From: a virus
Lineage: Duplodnaviria > Heunggongvirae > Uroviricota > Caudoviricetes
IMG/VR virus record: IMGVR_UViG_3300023181_000027
Span: 35,473 to 99,472 of that record
Direction: 5' to 3' (one strand)
Length of the DNA stretch: 64,000 bases
How positions within the stretch are numbered: the stretch's first letter is position 1; each line of letters opens with the position of its first letter. Shown piece by piece: positions 13,640 through 55,632 of the stretch. The position numbers were made by a program, and so were the translations under genes. A model generated the notes under the pieces. It was not told the DNA's origin. It made no database searches and was given only the letters and a program-made list of their open reading frames with translations.

Positions 13640-14866
13640 TTAAAACCTAAATAAAAAGTTTGTTTCTTTGTGTCTTCTCTCAGTAAACTCACCAGTAGTG
13701 AGAAAGTCGTCTAGTTGCTTTTCGTTAAGCGTAACTACCTTAAGGTCCTTACTACTCTTCTTAAACCACTCTTCTTCCACAGTACCTTTAATTACCAGAT
13801 GCCATACCTCAGCCACCTTATCTCCTTCTTTTCGGATTGAGCGACCAATTCTTTGACGTTTGGTAATTGATGAGCTATCGCCTGAGAGTATAATTATTGT
13901 GTCTACGCCTGTAACGTCAGCTCCCACATTTAAAGCTTGGCATGAATTAAGAGTTCCACTATCAGCATCGTTAAATGACTGTAACATCTTCTCTTTCTTC
14001 TTCTTACTCACTTTCCCATGATATATGTCTCCACAGCAGATTTGCTTAGCGTGATCAACTGATTTTGTAAATGTAATGATCTTTGCATTTTCACGTGCAT
14101 TGATGATCTTATCCGCTATCTCAATCTTCTTTAAGTGGTCATATATAAAGCTCTTTCGGGCTTTCATGGCTTTTATAAACCCCATGGCAGCTATTGTAAC
14201 CTCTCCTGGAGATTTATGTTTATGTTTGGCATAGTGATACCTGTAGCCATTAAGACCACTGACACACTTCATTGCCTCATTAAAATCAAACTCAAAGAAA
14301 GAGAAATAATGTAGGAACTTAGTGTTCCATTTGGCATATTCTGTCAGATCTACATCCAACATGACACGGTATTGCTTATAATCAGCGACCCACTCGTACT
14401 TGATAGCATCATCAAGTGTGATACGATCACATATAGGGGCGTACTGTTGTAACATTACCTCCTTACCATCTAGTCTATCGATAGTACCAGTAAGGCAAAG
14501 TATTAACTTGTATTTAACTTGATGAAAGATTGCTGAGAAGCTCTCAGCAACCATCATATGCACTTCATCGACAATCAACAAATCGCAACTTAACTCACGT
14601 TTGATAGCTGTGTTTACTACATACACGTCCACGTGTTGTATGAGTTCCCTCTCAATAAGCTCTTTTATCCATTGCTCTTTTAAATTGTCGGTTGGTACGA
14701 TGACTATCATCTTAGCATCCGCTTTCTTCGCTAACATTCGAGTGATGATTTTCATCGCCACTCTAGTCTTACCAAATCCAGTAGGATACAAACATGTAGC
14801 CCTTCCACCAGCTTTTTTCCAATGTTCTATCCCTTCATCTTGACGTGCATCACGTGTTAGAGTCAA
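13640..14866 (-). CDS. SF2 DEAD/DEAH-box helicase (UvsW/RAD25-like)
   Basis: Motif I PTGFGKTRVA, motif II LLIVDEVH, motif III LTGT and motif VI QRIGRSIR are all present. Confidence 0.75.
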   Translation of the reverse strand: MTLTRDARQDEGIEHWKKAGGRATCLYPTGFGKTRVAMKIITRMLAKKADAKMIVIVPTDNLKEQWIKELIERELIQHVDVYVVNTAIKRELSCDLLIVDEVHMMVAESFSAIFHQVKYKLILCLTGTIDRLDGKEVMLQQYAPICDRITLDDAIKYEWVADYKQYRVMLDVDLTEYAKWNTKFLHYFSFFEFDFNEAMKCVSGLNGYRYHYAKHKHKSPGEVTIAAMGFIKAMKARKSFIYDHLKKIEIADKIINARENAKIITFTKSVDHAKQICCGDIYHGKVSKKKKEKMLQSFNDADSGTLNSCQALNVGADVTGVDTIIILSGDSSSITKRQRIGRSIRKEGDKVAEVWHLVIKGTVEEEWFKKSSKDLKVVTLNEKQLDDFLTTGEFTERRHKETNFLFRF

Positions 14867-32670: not shown

Positions 32671-32688
32671 GAGTTTAAATTGATTTAG

Positions 32689-32763
32689 TGGGCCAGGGGA
32701 GATTCGAACTCGCCTACCTTCGGCTTATGAGGCCGCCGCTCTAACCGAGTGAGCTACCGGCCC
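32689..32763 (-). tRNA. tRNA-Met/Ile2 (anticodon CAU), uninterrupted
   Basis: Hand fold gives acceptor GGGCCGG/CUGGCCC, D-arm GCUCACUCGGUUAGAGC, anticodon loop CUCAUAA and T-loop UUCGAAU. Confidence 0.65.
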
Positions 32764-38353: not shown

Positions 38354-38465
38354 CGGACGAGAGGAGATTCGAACTCCTGACACGGGCATTAAAAGTGCAA
38401 ATTAATGACTTCTAAGTGATAGGATCACTATTTGTTTCCTGCTCTACCAGCTGAGCTACTCGTCC
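38354..38465 (-). tRNA. tRNA gene with an internal insert of about 40 nt (112 nt total) carrying a conserved AGUGAU-CCU-AUCACU triloop hairpin
   Basis: Acceptor GGACGAG/CUCGUCC, a canonical D-arm UAGCUCAGCUGGUAGAGC and T-arm AGGAG-UUCGAAU-CUCCU, but 57 nt lie between the D- and T-arms. The motif is at about 38411-38430. Confidence 0.55.
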
Positions 38466-39167: not shown

Positions 39168-39278
39168 TGGTAGGGGCGTGCGGAGTTGAACCGCTATTTC
39201 AATTTATCAGATTTGTTTTTAACCAAGTAATTGATTCTAAGTGAGATGCTCACTACTAATTTATATTTAACGCCCCTA
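39168..39278 (-). ncRNA. tRNA-like RNA with encoded CCA, no canonical D-arm, and an internal AGUGAG-CAU-CUCACU hairpin
   Basis: Acceptor AGGGGCG/CGCCCCU-A-CCA. T-arm GCGG-UUCAACU-CCGC. Motif at about 39236-39258. Confidence 0.4.
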
Positions 39279-39279
39279 G

Positions 39280-39393
39280 CGAGGAAGAGTGGACTCGAAC
39301 CACTGACCTTCAGGTTTACCTTGCTTTATGATTGCTAAGTGACATAGTCACTAAAATTGCACCTGACGCTCTGAACCACTGAGCTACTTCCCC
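39280..39393 (-). tRNA. tRNA gene with a 40-nt insert inside the anticodon loop (114 nt), carrying an AGUGAC-UAU-GUCACU hairpin
   Basis: Acceptor GGGGAAG/CUUCCUC, D-arm UAGCUCAGUGGUUCAGAGC, anticodon stem UCAGG/CCUGA enclosing 47 nt, T-arm AGUGG-UUCGAGU-CCACU. Confidence 0.6.
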
Positions 39394-40100: not shown

Positions 40101-40236
40101 TGGATGTAGGGAGACTCGAACTCCCGTCCCTGCAGCTACTCATACCTACCACTCAAGTACATCATCGTGTTTCTCCCACACGTGGGAGAGTATGGTCTCA
40201 AACACCGTCCGCTCTCATCCTCTGAGCTATACACCC
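40101..40236 (-). tRNA. tRNA gene with an insert of about 60 nt (136 nt) containing the palindromic hairpin UCUCCCACGUGUGGGAGA
   Basis: Acceptor GGGUGUA/UACAUCC, D-arm UAGCUCAGAGGAUGAGAGC, T-arm GGGAG-UUCGAGU-CUCCC. The intervening region is long. Confidence 0.45.
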
Positions 40237-44119: not shown

Positions 44120-44229
44120 CAGGGGCGGAGAGAATCGAACTCCCATTTACGGCTTGGAATGCTGAATAAATGTTTATAAGTGACAGAATCACTACTATTT
44201 ACGTTGTCCTACCATTAGACTACACCCCT
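44120..44229 (-). tRNA. tRNA gene with an insert of about 35 nt (110 nt) carrying an AGUGAU-UCU-GUCACU hairpin
   Basis: Acceptor AGGGGUG/CGCCCCU, D-arm AGUCUAAUGGUAGGAC, T-arm GGGAG-UUCGAUU-CUCUC. Motif at about 44173-44197. Confidence 0.5.
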
Positions 44230-44282
44230 GTTTATTTTAAGCAAGAACGAGTGATTGTTTAGGCCACCCGTTCAGGCTACCC

Positions 44283-44711
44283 TCAAACTACCTGCTGTCT
44301 TAATGCAGTTAACTTTTCTTGTATTTTTCCCTTCTTTTCTTCCGGCGTTTCAAACAATCCCAATTCTTTCTCAAGAAGTGCAATCTCTCTAGCCAGTTTC
44401 GCTTTCTCCGATTCTACCGCTTTTGTGAAACGGATAAGGTCGACAATATCAGCCAACTCTTCAGCAGTGATATCCGCTACATAGAATTTGGCTTCAGCGC
44501 TTTCTTTCTTAATCCTGGTTGACACTACATTAACAGGCATTTGCTTCAAGCTTGTGAATAGAGCTTTCAAAGTCTCATCTTTTGCTTCATGCAATAACTG
44601 CTGTATGGTTAAGTGATCTGTAAAAGCTTTCTTTATTACTGGAATCACTATATTATTGTTCACACACTTCAGTATGAACTCATTCAATTTAAGACGGTCT
44701 TGTTCGGTCAT
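44283..44711 (-). CDS. hypothetical protein (142 aa)
   Basis: Track ORF. Confidence 0.45.
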   Translation of the reverse strand: MTEQDRLKLNEFILKCVNNNIVIPVIKKAFTDHLTIQQLLHEAKDETLKALFTSLKQMPVNVVSTRIKKESAEAKFYVADITAEELADIVDLIRFTKAVESEKAKLAREIALLEKELGLFETPEEKKGKIQEKLTALRQQVV

Positions 44712-50122: not shown

Positions 50123-50518
50123 TTAACTGGCGTAGGCGTTTAGCATTTGTACAAGAATGTCGAGATCAGTGGAGATAGCAGCACCTGCAGCACCTCTCTG
50201 TGCAGCTAATTGACTAACTGCATAAAGTGACTTTTGCTGGTGTACATCAAAACCATCAAGTAACCCATAGAATATGGTACGCTTGTCTTTACGGTAACAA
50301 GAGTCTATAACTTCAGCAATACTAAAGAAACCGATTATCTCTTTGCTAATCACATATAAATGCACGTTACATAGGTCTTTCTGTCGCTCTTCTTCTGCTT
50401 GTGCTTCTGGTGTCCAGTCAGCTACTACAGGATTGAAATAGTCCACTTTTAATTGAGGGATAAGTTGGTCTCTCCAAGTACTGTTGTTGCAAGTACCACC
50501 TAAAAAGATTTTAGTCAT
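50123..50518 (-). CDS. nucleoside 2-deoxyribosyltransferase-like protein, paralog of 21256..21735
   Basis: N-terminal KIFLGGTCNNSTWRDQLIPQL matches the (I/V)(F/Y)LxG...(T/D)WR signature of NDT-like proteins. Confidence 0.45.
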   Translation of the reverse strand: MTKIFLGGTCNNSTWRDQLIPQLKVDYFNPVVADWTPEAQAEEERQKDLCNVHLYVISKEIIGFFSIAEVIDSCYRKDKRTIFYGLLDGFDVHQQKSLYAVSQLAAQRGAAGAAISTDLDILVQMLNAYAS

Positions 50519-51363: not shown

Positions 51364-51473
51364 GGGAGAAGGACGGGATTCGAACTCGCGACCACGGCAA
51401 CCAAAAGCTTATTAAAGGCTTCTAAGTGATAAAATCACTGTGTTACGTGCTCTGAACCAGCTGAGCTACCTTC
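51364..51473 (-). tRNA. tRNA gene with an insert of about 35 nt (110 nt) carrying an AGUGAU-UUU-AUCACU hairpin
   Basis: Acceptor GGAGAAG/CUUCUCC, D-arm UAGCUCAGCUGGUUCAGAGC, T-loop UUCGAAU. Motif at about 51419-51441, identical in context (AGUGAU...AUCACUUAGAAG) to the 38354..38465 gene. Confidence 0.5.
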
Positions 51474-51488
51474 TCCGTGTGTTGTAAT

Positions 51489-51523
51489 GTAAAAAAGGTG
51501 ACGTTCCTCCGAACAATCACCTT
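51489..51523 (-). terminator. rho-independent terminator
   Basis: In the minus sense, AGGUGA-(15-nt loop)-UCACCU is followed by UUUUUU. It sits downstream of queD and upstream of the tRNA. Confidence 0.5.
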
Positions 51524-51712
51524 CTAAATTAAAAAAATTGTCTAACAATGAAAATCCTTATTTAAAAACAAGAGCGTGGCAGGATTTTAGGCATGAACAG
51601 GTAAATGGTGATTGTAGCACCCCCCTTGTATTTAGCGCCTCTAGGAAGCCCCCGCGACCGTACGCTTAGCCGGTCCTTTGCCGCATGCCACCCTGCACAC
51701 GCTCTAACTCGT

Positions 51713-52099
51713 TTATGCGACCATACTCATATAAATGTGGTCTTTAACGAATATGTTTGTGAGTTTCGCCATAGCGGACTCTCTACCCATTTCGTCTATA
51801 GGTGTAATCACTACTTTGACAGCCATTGGATCTACTCTTTTCCTCTCCAATGTTGTTAATATTGTCTTCATGATAACCTGATGCATTTCCTCGCAACTAC
51901 CTGCATGTTTTATGTTACGAATGGCATCATCAACATCTTGATGATCGATCAGAAAGCCTCTGCTATCTAAACGAATTGTTGGGTCAAATACAATCTTGCA
52001 GGTGTAGTTGTAGCCATGATGGCCAACCCCTTTACATTGATTGCTTGTTGCTTTGTGTGGTTTAAAGTGGCCCACTCTTTCCATGACGAAGAACTCCAT
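51713..52099 (-). CDS. queD: 6-pyruvoyl-tetrahydropterin synthase family protein (QueD/PTPS-like)
   Basis: Zn-binding signature CKGVGHHGYNY (CxxxHGH.Y), and the size (128 aa) fits PTPS/QueD. Confidence 0.6.
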   Translation of the reverse strand: MEFFVMERVGHFKPHKATSNQCKGVGHHGYNYTCKIVFDPTIRLDSRGFLIDHQDVDDAIRNIKHAGSCEEMHQVIMKTILTTLERKRVDPMAVKVVITPIDEMGRESAMAKLTNIFVKDHIYMSMVA

Positions 52100-52121: not shown

Positions 52122-52376
52122 TTACAAAGAGATACTTTTCTTTCCCCATTGAATGTTGTTCCATAATCTTTCATATACGAGATAAACTATGGTAAGAATG
52201 AGGTGAATTAAGATGGCACTGCCTATGCCAGTAAAGCAGGCAGTAATTGATGTGGTGATCAACTTGAAGAAGATGGTTTTAACTACACTACGTTTTACAG
52301 TGTCTAATTGTTGTGTGTTGTTCATTGTTTCGCGGGGTTTAAATGTTTTTACTTCGCTCTTGCGTAGAGAATCCAA
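52122..52376 (-). CDS. small membrane protein (84 aa)
   Basis: Two hydrophobic helices. Confidence 0.4.
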   Translation of the reverse strand: MDSLRKSEVKTFKPRETMNNTQQLDTVKRSVVKTIFFKLITTSITACFTGIGSAILIHLILTIVYLVYERLWNNIQWGKKSISL

Positions 52377-52680
52377 TTCAAGTCATCAGCATCTTCAATT
52401 GTCGCTATATAAGTTGACTCGGTATTCTTATCATACACTGTATTACCAATCTTTGTTTCGGTGTAGTATATAATATAATCCACACCATCAATAGTTACTA
52501 TTTCCATTTTTGTAAGTTTACAGATTAAAGAGACGAGAGGCTAATAGATTGTTATTCTTGTCTGTCTAGCTTATTAGCTGTTCATGTGCCGAAACATGGA
52601 GATTCACCATGCACTCTCGTACGCACCTTAGTGCTCTCTTTTAATGAAGCTATGTGTAACTACACCACTTAGCTTATTTG

Positions 52681-52750
52681 TGGACCCGAAGGGTTTCGAA
52701 CCCTTGTCCGGTTGTGCTGCAAAGCAGCTTTCTACACGCTTATCCTTTTT
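52681..52750 (-). ncRNA. tRNA-like fragment or minihelix (T-arm AAGGG-UUCGAAA-CCCUU plus a GCUGC-UUU-GCAGC triloop hairpin)
   Basis: Canonical T-arm and an acceptor-like 3' end, but no matching 5' acceptor strand nearby. It abuts the 1.2-kb ORF-free structured region. Confidence 0.3.
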
Positions 52751-53605
52751 TATGTCACTGTTAGGATCAGTCTTACCCTATTTCACGTTCGGATTTGTTA
52801 CATCTTTAATGTGAGGTAACTCCCACGTTTTAAGTTTTAATTTAGGCAAGCTAAGCTGTTTCTCACTTCGCTTCATCACAGACTTTACTGTTCGTGGGTT
52901 CATTTAATCTGACTAGTTCATAGATTTTCACCTACGACCGCACCTCCCGCCCTTAACATGCTATTTTCCGTTCCCCGCATAGCTGCGCGTTGGTTAAACC
53001 AGCTCGTAAGCCAGGTTTGCTTCAATGTGTGCGAGCACATCATCGATACCAGTTGTAGAAAGCTCTACGTTGTTTGTGTTGCCACTTATTGTTTTTACAC
53101 CTTACTTTGTACGGGTTGGGTGCCATGCCGTGCGTGCTTACTACTCAACTATCACCCCGTCAAATCCATACGGGCCCATGTTGTTTGTTTAATTTAAAGC
53201 CACCACTTCACCAGTTCCGTAAGATGAAGTGGTAGCCTAAGGTTGGAATGAGTTTAATAAACCCACCTGTCCCACGCATCCTGGTTTAGTCTCCAGAGCC
53301 TTGGAATGTTGTTGGTTTAGAACACTAACATAGGTCCATTCTAGTACCTAGATTTATTGCTAACAGAGCGTACACACTGCGTGTGCTTCAGTGTATTTCT
53401 ACACTTCATTCGAAAGCACGGATTTCTGCCCGCACTTGCCACAGATTAATAGCAAAAGCATTCATAAGGATTGTGCACATCCTCCCAATATTGTTGAATG
53501 ACCAGTATACGAGTTTAAGGAGATACGTAATTAGCTCCGTTTCAATGTGTTTAAGGGTTAACTGGTTCCATTATAGCCCACACTTTTTAGTTGTTCATGT
53601 TTTGA

Positions 53606-53905
53606 TTATTGTAACTCCCAAAGCTCATCACTGATTTTATCTTGCTCGGCTTGAGTATGACGTATTTTAAACTTAACAGTGCACTTTCTACGTGCATTGA
53701 TTTGTTTCACCAACTTCTCTCTTGTTAGAGTGTAGGTGTTGAGTGCAACAGCATGTTCCTGACATGGAACAAAACCGTTAAATGTAGCCTCTTTCACTTC
53801 TGGGCTACGTAAGAGATGTGGAATTGCTTGATTACCAAATGCTTTAATACAGCATTCAGGGTAGCCAAGAAACTCTCCATATACACGATTGTACGTTGTT
53901 TCCAT
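53606..53905 (-). CDS. hypothetical protein (99 aa)
   Basis: Track ORF. Confidence 0.4.
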   Translation of the reverse strand: METTYNRVYGEFLGYPECCIKAFGNQAIPHLLRSPEVKEATFNGFVPCQEHAVALNTYTLTREKLVKQINARRKCTVKFKIRHTQAEQDKISDELWELQ

Positions 53906-54887: not shown

Positions 54888-54975
54888 TTGTGACGGGTAT
54901 GGGAATCGAACCCAAGTCAGTGAGTCTCTGCATCCCTGCATTAACCCCTAGTAATGGCACCCTTTCGTGCAACTA
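54888..54975 (-). ncRNA. tRNA-like element (T-arm UUGGG-UUCGAUU-CCCAU), with the 5' half not resolved
   Basis: A T-arm and a 3' acceptor-like strand are recognisable. This 160-nt stretch has no ORF. Confidence 0.3.
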
Positions 54976-55006
54976 TCCGCATTATACTGAACCCGCCATG
55001 TGTTGT

Positions 55007-55468
55007 TTAAAATGTAAAATTCTCCGGCAGCTGAGCTTCTGCACCTGCATGCTTCAGTCTGTTTTCAATCTCTGGTGTCCATTCAATGTAATTGAATATT
55101 GGTAGTTCTTTGATTGATTGCTCTTTACCATCTAATAAGACGACTACAGAGTTACCAATTGTACGATTACCAGTATCTTCTACAAGAATTTGTCTGTGTT
55201 TTGGTACACGTAAGGATTGAAACTCCTCTCTAAACTCTGCTGTTACATCATCCCACTTGTTGTTCAACCACAATACTCTTAGTTTGAGTAGGGCTTCAGC
55301 GGCGAAGTCAGCTTTGTAATCTAAGGGTATATCGTTTACACTCTTTTCAATGGTTTGCTTAACTAATTCATAGAAGTCAGCAGTAAGCACATAGATCAAA
55401 TACTTTTTCATGTTTATATTGAAGGTTTTGGTTACTGTTTTGATAAAACGGGTGAGTGTGCTTACCAC
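55007..55468 (-). CDS. hypothetical protein (153 aa)
   Basis: Track ORF. Confidence 0.45.
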   Translation of the reverse strand: MVSTLTRFIKTVTKTFNINMKKYLIYVLTADFYELVKQTIEKSVNDIPLDYKADFAAEALLKLRVLWLNNKWDDVTAEFREEFQSLRVPKHRQILVEDTGNRTIGNSVVVLLDGKEQSIKELPIFNYIEWTPEIENRLKHAGAEAQLPENFTF

Positions 55469-55632
55469 TCACCCGTTTTACTGTTTATGTATAATAGAAG
55501 ACAATTTGGTGATATTTGTTTATACGTGAGGATGCATGACAACATCTAGTGTTAGTTTACTGTCGTTCTGTTGAAACGTGTGTGGGTTTCACACACTCGA
55601 CATAACACCCGTACTATCCCTAGTCCGACTAT

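Follow-up and report, generated by a model that had tools for sequence, protein, structure and literature searches.

A very divergent one-piece tmRNA gene as the likely occupant of an apparent 1.1-kb coding gap in an orphan phage genome

Introduction

Phage-encoded transfer-messenger RNAs (tmRNAs) are already established; they are known from the cluster C mycobacteriophages (Bxz1, Cali, Catera and others) and from Bacillus phage G (PMC4131195), and tmRNAs are also encoded by huge phages from metagenomes (PMC7162821). The locus described here is a non-coding block in a 64,000-nucleotide (nt) stretch of a Caudoviricetes genome (IMG/VR record IMGVR_UViG_3300023181_000027, positions 35473-99472 of that record). 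This whole stretch is referred to as the window, and all coordinates given below are those of the window. The block is very probably centred on a phage-encoded one-piece tmRNA gene on the minus strand, which runs from 53177 to 52678. The gene is a very divergent further member of the known group and not a new kind of gene.

The closest of the sampled tmRNAs are chromosomal genes of Bacteroidota, found in Bacteroidales metagenome-assembled genomes (L176, L141, L160, L133, L136 and L150) and in a Cytophagales genome (L157), with tags such as GEENFALAA and GEDYSYAMAA. These genes and the phage gene have in common the one-piece form, the UGGAUUUGACGGGG 5' domain, a helix 2 (H2) with UAAGCxUGUAGAAAGC, the first pseudoknot (PK1), the context AAAACAAUAAnU followed by the resume codon GGC (Gly), and the G3:U70 pair of the acceptor stem. 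The phage gene, however, is 500 nt long and has a predicted tag of 29 residues without the ALAA end, whereas the Bacteroidota genes are 392-401 nt long and encode tags of 9-10 residues. In addition, the acceptor stem, the T-stem and PK1 of the phage RNA are rewritten by compensatory changes, its region corresponding to the pseudoknots PK2-PK4 is not alignable, and the gene is located in a phage genome.

Results

Identification of the tmRNA gene

When the window is scanned with all Rfam families, a single strong match other than tRNAs is obtained, namely to the tmRNA family RF00023. The score of this match is 78.8 bits (gathering score 47) with an E-value of 6.6e-29, and it covers model positions 1-374 of 374 without being truncated. 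The original prediction for this region, made from the letters alone, had proposed a candidate large non-coding RNA, a group I intron remnant or a decayed gene, and had named tmRNA among the Rfam families to be searched. This search returns a full-length tmRNA on the minus strand, 53177 to 52678, and the proposal of a large non-coding RNA was correct. The parts of the gene are listed below, where RNA position i corresponds to window position 53178 - i.

52678-53177, minus strand: tmRNA (ssrA) gene, standard one-piece, 500 nt (Rfam RF00023)
53171-53177, minus strand: acceptor stem, 5' strand (GGGCCCG), with G3 of the alanine identity pair G3:U70; pairs with 52682-52688 (CGGGUCC)
53132-53159, minus strand: 5' strand of H2, RNA 19-46 (Rfam alignment)
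53097-53131, minus strand: PK1, ACGG (47-50)/CCGU (64-67) interleaved with GCACC (55-59)/GGUGU (77-81)
52994-53083, minus strand: predicted tag frame, with resume codon GGC at 53083-53081, 29 sense codons specifying GNTNNVELSTTGIDDVLAHIEANLAYELV, and stop codon UAA at 52996-52994
52996-53018, minus strand: hairpin H5, RNA 160-182, with a 3' end that extends onto the first base of the UAA stop (from minimum-free-energy folding of the tmRNA and reading of the sequence)
52746-52993, minus strand: region that holds PK2-PK4 in other tmRNAs, RNA 185-432, about 80-100 nt longer than in Bacteroidales
52708-52739, minus strand: 3' strand of H2, RNA 439-470, including the conserved UAAGCGUGUAGAAAGC (Rfam alignment and Bacteroidales alignment)
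52681-52705, minus strand: T-arm AAGGG-UUCGAAA-CCCUU at 52705-52689, acceptor 3' strand at 52688-52682 and discriminator A at 52681

The modules that define a tmRNA are present: an alanine-type acceptor with G3:U70, a T-arm, no anticodon arm, H2, PK1 and an open frame for the predicted tag. A tRNA-like T-arm and acceptor fragment at 52681-52750 had already been noticed in the original prediction, where it was described as a minihelix lacking a 5' half. This fragment is real and is on the minus strand, but its 5' partner does exist, at 53171-53177. The minihelix corresponds to the 3' part of the tRNA-like domain; the 5' half GGGCCCG lies 480 nt away, as tmRNAs are built.

Conservation of the helices

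Base pairing was compared in an alignment of the phage tmRNA with seven Bacteroidales tmRNAs. In the acceptor stem all seven pairs are standard, with two two-sided changes and one one-sided change with respect to the Bacteroidales tmRNAs, and the G3:U pair is the same in all aligned sequences. Pairing in the T-stem is complete (100%), with three two-sided changes, and the T-loop UUCGAAA is intact. The 3' CCA is not encoded; the discriminator is followed by CAA. The three helices of H2 (helices 2-4) are 100%, 73% and 100% paired across the alignment, and the phage sequence forms 21 of the 22 modelled pairs. PK1, which ends 13 nt before the GGC codon, has nine of nine standard pairs in the phage sequence and three two-sided changes. 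One stem of PK1 comes from the Rfam alignment and both were read from the sequence, such that the assignment is that of the phage sequence and the Bacteroidales alignment only.

When these elements (acceptor stem, H2, PK1 and T-stem) are considered together, pairing in the 43 counted pairs is 88%, and 11 pairs have two-sided changes. This result is not reached in any of 500 shuffles, and when the partners are slid by 1-3 columns there are 1-4 two-sided pairs and 40-57% pairing; the structure was written from the phage sequence, which favours this sequence in the slid control. All 11 two-sided changes are differences between the phage sequence and the Bacteroidales set. As judged from this alignment, the helices are evidently maintained by compensatory substitutions. 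The phage copy is far diverged and yet its helices are kept, which argues against a decaying captured fragment.

The predicted tag and the tags of other viral tmRNAs

The placement of the tag frame follows from the homology of the resume site, and the frame is to be read as a predicted one. The context AAAACAAUAAnU followed by GGC is common to the phage and the Bacteroidales tmRNAs and is found in the same alignment columns. In the phage RNA the single-stranded context is AAAACAAUAAGU, followed by GGC AAC ACA, and in the Bacteroidales RNAs it is AAAACAAUAACU, followed by GGC GAA GAA AAC UUU GCU CUU GCU GCC UAA, which specifies GEENFALAA according to ARAGORN. The consensus resume codon of the Rfam alignment falls on the phage GGC at 53083-53081, and ARAGORN, when used at a very low threshold, selects the same tag peptide, inside a wrong gene model.

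The modal length of tmRNA tags is 10 residues (PMC11915505), and tags normally have a hydrophobic end, typically Ala-Ala (PMC11915505; PMC4131195). The predicted phage tag, with 29 residues, is about three times longer than the modal tag and ends with Leu-Val, of which the last residue is hydrophobic. It is possible that the fate of the tagged proteins differs from canonical ClpXP degradation, because the tag is without the usual Ala-Ala. Phage-borne tmRNAs are common among the viral-contig loci that were fetched from IMG/VR, and they include some to which ARAGORN assigns tags of 17-31 residues. Long, non-canonical tags, such as ANAQIEANMNKVFSLLGEEVAVAA (L045), VNSTESAMTEIMSIFGSDVVLESQMATLEAA (L050) and AKLSTLGLIRTEEVTVA (L020), resemble the phage tag in having a polar start and in being acidic and hydrophobic towards the end. 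They differ from it in ending with A or AA, whereas the phage tag ends with LV, and these tmRNAs can be aligned with the phage tmRNA over the 3' tRNA-like domain of about 70 nt only.

The PK2-PK4 region

The RF00023 model bridges the PK2-PK4 region by local gaps of 21, 93 and 101 nt. The extra length of the phage gene, when compared with its Bacteroidota relatives, is found in the longer tag frame and in this region. Candidate stems are present, including a GAAA-capped hairpin at RNA 241-260, as seen in this single sequence, and an assignment to PK2-PK4 was set aside for this reason. A stretch of 14 nt upstream of the gene, at 53253-53266 (GUGGGUUUAUUAAA, RNA strand), is 86% complementary to 52894-52907 (UUAAAUGAACCCAC) in the PK2-PK4 region; this may be a chance match or a contact within a long precursor.

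Extent and composition of the non-coding block

The longest minus-strand gap of the window without an open reading frame (ORF) of at least 50 amino acids is 52508-53605 (1098 nt), with a runner-up of 430 nt, and all genes flanking this block are on the minus strand. The ORF-free region had been predicted as 52380-53605. The gap is real and is indeed the longest of the window, but the left limit of 52380 is located within a 52-amino-acid ORF (52349-52507), which is also accepted by an independent gene call on the identical public contig. The GC content of the block is 0.423, compared with 0.392 for the window, which places it in the top 3% among windows of 1098 nt. The predicted GC enrichment is thus real, but it is only slight, and it arises because the central 500 nt, which is the tmRNA, is richer in GC (0.454); the value for the upstream 428 nt is 0.404.

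The flanks of the tmRNA gene

The features outside the tmRNA are the following.

53239-53605, minus strand: non-coding stretch between the 99-amino-acid gene and the hairpin
53583-53600, minus strand: first copy of an 18-nt direct repeat, ACATGAACAACTAAAAAG, overlapping the -35 element of the promoter-like site, at the upstream edge of the block
53597-53570, minus strand: sigma-70-like promoter site TGAACA-16-TATAAT (10 of 12 matches), starting 9 nt after the stop codon of the upstream gene
53197-53238, minus strand: strong hairpin with a 16-bp stem and a 10-nt loop, about -25 kcal/mol, followed by UUUAAAUU; terminator-like, or a processing/stability element
52508-52677, minus strand: 3' trailer of 170 nt between the tmRNA and the 52-amino-acid ORF starting at 52507; weak hairpins only, fold z = -1.3
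52570-52587, minus strand: second copy of the direct repeat, ACATGAACAGCTAATAAG, close to the downstream limit of the block

The hairpin at 53197-53238 ends 19 nt before the 5' end of the tmRNA and is the second most stable 50-nt fold of the minus strand in the whole window. It was overlooked by the terminator scan, since its loop exceeds 8 nt. The most stable local hairpin of the window is found elsewhere, at 55440-55489 (minus strand), with a perfect 16-bp stem of -26.4 kcal/mol (AAAACGGGUGAGUG...CACUCACCCGUUUU); it is located at the start of a 153-amino-acid ORF (55007-55468) and has the appearance of a bidirectional terminator. For many genes of this genome, terminators consisting of a stem and a U-tract are found directly 3' of the stop codon. 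Terminator-like hairpins are also present at 51492-51541 and 44238-44287 (minus strand), where they are separated by a short A/U-rich spacer from the tRNA genes at 51475 and 44229 and lie 15-21 nt 5' of these genes. The same arrangement is seen before the tmRNA, which suggests a common transcription or processing layout for stable-RNA genes.

Promoter-like sites of the quality of the site at 53597-53570 are only mildly enriched in the non-coding DNA of the window. The Bacteroidetes-type promoter motif (TTTG...TAnnTTTG) is not enriched in the window, and none is found upstream of the tmRNA.

The original prediction had described the region as highly structured, quoting two helices at about 53196-53232 and about 53385-53420. 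Both helices are present in the sequence, the first of them being the hairpin at 53197-53238, but the folding of the upstream 428 nt (53178-53605) is within the background of this genome. The fold z-score of this segment is -2.9 for the minus strand and +0.6 for the plus strand, and the 29 minus-strand control windows of 428 nt have a mean z-score of -1.49 with a standard deviation of 1.21, three of the 29 being below -2.9. No Rfam family matches the upstream segment at E <= 10, either with 2 kb or with 471 nt as the query, and no DNA similar to it is present in any fetched locus. The upstream 428 nt is most likely the 5' flank of the tmRNA gene, with a promoter-like site, a leader or a separate short transcript, and a hairpin of the terminator or processing type; a second conserved structured RNA is improbable here. 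The hairpin 53197-53238 may mark the end of a transcript of about 370 nt, or else it may be a processing/stability element of a longer tmRNA precursor.

A repeat search of the upstream segment found nothing except the 18-nt direct repeat (ACATGAACARCTAAWAAG). The two copies are identical at 16 of 18 positions, have no other close copy in the window, and bracket the upstream segment, the tmRNA and the trailer. The repeat may be due to chance, or it may be a shared regulatory site or the scar or edges of an inserted cassette. The trailer has no reading frame, and no similar DNA is found in the fetched loci.

Other RNA genes of the window

At least six oversized tRNA-like genes of 109-135 nt are present in the window, in which 40-80 nt are inserted at the position of the anticodon loop.

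38355-38465, minus strand: oversized tRNA-like gene
39281-39393, minus strand: oversized tRNA-like gene
about 39170-39275, minus strand: oversized tRNA-like gene
40102-40236, minus strand: oversized tRNA-like gene
44121-44229, minus strand: oversized tRNA-like gene
51365-51475, minus strand: oversized tRNA-like gene
32847, 38413, 39238, 39336, 44177 and 51423: copies of the insert-hairpin motif

Five of the inserts share the hairpin AGUGAY-NNN-RUCACUUA, a motif that occurs seven times in the window where 0.29 occurrences are expected. The fifth pair of its stem covaries, and the central triplets are anticodon-like (UAU, UCU, UUU, CCU and CAU). The shared hairpin is followed by a second, variable hairpin, and simple excision does not give a canonical 7-nt loop. 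Introns described as 'enigmatic' have been reported for tRNAs of the Lak megaphages (bioRxiv 10.1101/356790). Only one canonical tRNA is called, a Met tRNA at 32688-32763. Another tRNA-like gene, at 54892-54980 (minus strand, 89 nt), is given a 4-base 'anticodon' aggg by ARAGORN, and its boundary or its RNA nature is doubtful; a sigma-70-like promoter TAAACA-17-TATAAT (10 of 12 matches, 54981-55009, minus strand) ends exactly at the 5' end of this gene.

Search for relatives

The phage is an orphan. With blastn, the region 52300-53700 has no similarity to any of 50,697 GenBank phage records, and the 942-amino-acid protein has no tblastn match in the same 50,697 records. The tblastn searches with the 942-amino-acid and 99-amino-acid neighbouring proteins gave only weak matches (27-40% identity), to Vibrio and Aeromonas phages. 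No relatives were found in the search for related loci with the QueD-like neighbour, and in a database of 5.8 billion proteins the 99-amino-acid and the QueD-like neighbours each match themselves only. Ten neighbouring proteins have no match in PHROG. When the tmRNA, the upstream piece and the downstream piece were compared with 178 loci by nhmmer, only the 3' tRNA-like domain of about 70 nt was matched. An identical sequence is L001 (Logan SRR7968062). The recognisable functions in the window are a NAMPT/NAPRTase-like protein (19180-21051), a helicase (13640-14866), a nucleoside 2-deoxyribosyltransferase-like protein (50123-50518) and a weakly QueD/PTPS-like protein (51713-52099).

The tmRNAs used for comparison were retrieved from genomes, metagenomes and viral contigs by degenerate patterns taken from the phage sequence, and were ranked by the similarity of the 5' 97 nt and the 3' 70 nt. 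The top eleven are all of Bacteroidota, namely one of Cytophagales, several of Bacteroidales and two contigs with Bacteroidota-type tags, such that the closeness to Bacteroidota applies within the sampled tmRNAs. This Bacteroidota-like tmRNA is the only host hint found for the phage, and it is a weak one, because the comparison set was drawn with patterns of the phage sequence itself and because Bacteroidetes-type promoter motifs are not enriched.

Discussion

Several observations weigh against a tmRNA gene at this locus. ARAGORN does not call the gene with default or moderately relaxed settings, and with relaxed thresholds it gives implausible permuted models only. The PK2-PK4 region is not alignable to the RF00023 model, the Ala-Ala end is absent from the predicted tag, and 29 open codons are expected by chance in roughly 1 of 4 cases. 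A tblastn search of the 64-kb window with E. coli SmpB, which is a weak test, did not find an SmpB; the window covers less than half of the genome, the size of which is at least 134,778 bp. In searches of IMG/VR, metagenomes and genomes with exact and degenerate tmRNA patterns, no relative of the phage or of its tmRNA was found. Finally, a true terminator at 53197-53238 would leave 19 nt for a tmRNA promoter.

Some of these points would also be in agreement with a different role, in which the tmRNA-like RNA serves as a decoy, either by titrating the SmpB of the host or by blocking the host's trans-translation, or is an ssrA copy that was captured recently from a host and is decaying. The atypical tag of 29 residues without Ala-Ala, the PK2-PK4 region and the SmpB result can be read in this way, and there is the precedent of an inhibitory phage RNA consisting of the tRNA-like domain only, as proposed for mycobacteriophage DS6A (PMC4131195; PMC11915505). 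We consider this improbable. The mRNA-like part is complete, with PK1, a resume context that is conserved, a frame that is open and, at the H5 hairpin, a stop, which makes a decoy role less likely, and an RNA that is far diverged from any sampled bacterial tmRNA while its helices are kept through 11 two-sided changes points to long-term selection and not to decay. Most remote of all is the possibility that the block is a tRNA gene interrupted by a large group I-like intron, a remnant of such a gene, or a decayed protein gene. The acceptor and T-arm halves are indeed about 480 nt apart, and tRNA genes with insertions exist in this genome. The question of an intron is worth raising because the gene is at least 500 bp long, as are the tmRNA genes of the intron form, in which a group I intron interrupts the T-loop (PMC11915505). 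Group I introns of tmRNA genes are, however, known within the T-loop only (PMC11915505), and the T-loop of the phage gene is uninterrupted, there is no group I signal, and the tag frame and the PK2-PK4 region account for the extra length. With permissive filters and E <= 10, the Intron_gpI, group II and ribozyme families all remain without a match, neither ARAGORN nor the Rfam tRNA model calls a tRNA at the locus, the D-arm and the anticodon arm are absent, and the hairpin common to the insert-bearing tRNA genes is absent as well. The RNA between the two halves fits the tmRNA model from one end to the other; what had been proposed as an intron insert is an mRNA-like and pseudoknot domain. Likewise, a decayed gene finds no support: in the upstream 428 nt (53178-53605) all six frames are interrupted several times by stops of each of the three kinds, a PHROG search with the six frames translated and the stops masked gave no match (best E 0.095), neither a reading frame nor a PHROG match is found in the block, and the RNA fold is kept by compensatory changes. 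The verdict is a large non-coding RNA and not an intron, a split tRNA or a pseudogene.

Two further possibilities accept the tmRNA gene and concern what accompanies it or what it does. The more plausible of these, though still doubtful, is that the approximately 370 nt upstream of it (about 53563-53197) form a distinct and new small RNA of the phage, with its own promoter at 53597-53570 and its own terminator. In favour of this are the promoter-like site, matching at 10 of 12 positions and placed directly after the stop of the upstream gene, and the very strong hairpin 53238-53197 with its U-rich tail UUUAAAUU; an untranslated stretch of 365 nt before a terminator is unusual in this genome, where terminators otherwise directly follow stop codons, and the folding is strand-asymmetric. 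However, this fold z-score is within the background of the coding windows of the same genome, promoter-like sites of such quality are only mildly enriched in non-coding DNA, and the GC content barely exceeds the genome average. No Rfam family matches the proposed small RNA, and no homologue is present among the searched sequences. The other possibility, which is unlikely, is that of a repurposed trans-translation, in which an acidic, amphipathic 29-residue tail without an Ala-Ala degron leads to a fate other than ClpXP degradation or out-competes host tagging, and/or in which the 370-nt segment is a new small RNA made together with the tmRNA in a mobile cassette between the 18-nt repeats.

If the tmRNA functions as other members of its family do (PMC4131195; PMC7162821), its precursor would be cut by RNase P at the 5' end and trimmed at the 3' end, followed by the addition of CCA, which is expected because CCA is not encoded. 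The alanyl-tRNA synthetase of the host would then charge the RNA with alanine, via G3:U70, and SmpB, presumably that of the host or one encoded elsewhere in the phage genome, would bind to it. The complex would enter ribosomes stalled on broken or stop-less mRNAs, translation would resume at GGC with the addition of (A)GNTNNVELSTTGIDDVLAHIEANLAYELV, and the ribosome would be released at UAA. In this way a large lytic phage would retain available ribosomes while the mRNAs of host and phage are being cut.

With this identification, an apparent gap of 1.1 kb in the densely coding genome of an orphan phage becomes an identified gene, and the small set of phage tmRNAs gains a very divergent example. 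As in the known cases, the phage is large, has tRNA genes and encodes a one-piece tmRNA of its own, which presumably serves to rescue ribosomes during infection. The present case differs from the known phage tmRNAs in its lineage and in the presumed host group, and it has no similarity detectable by blastn in the 50,697 GenBank phage records. ARAGORN was the tool of the huge-phage survey, whereas the present gene is not detected by ARAGORN; because this usual counting tool misses it, surveys of phages that are based on ARAGORN may undercount divergent phage tmRNAs. The long tag without Ala-Ala matches the pattern of the viral contigs, which raises the question of whether phage tmRNAs rescue ribosomes without the usual degradation of the products.

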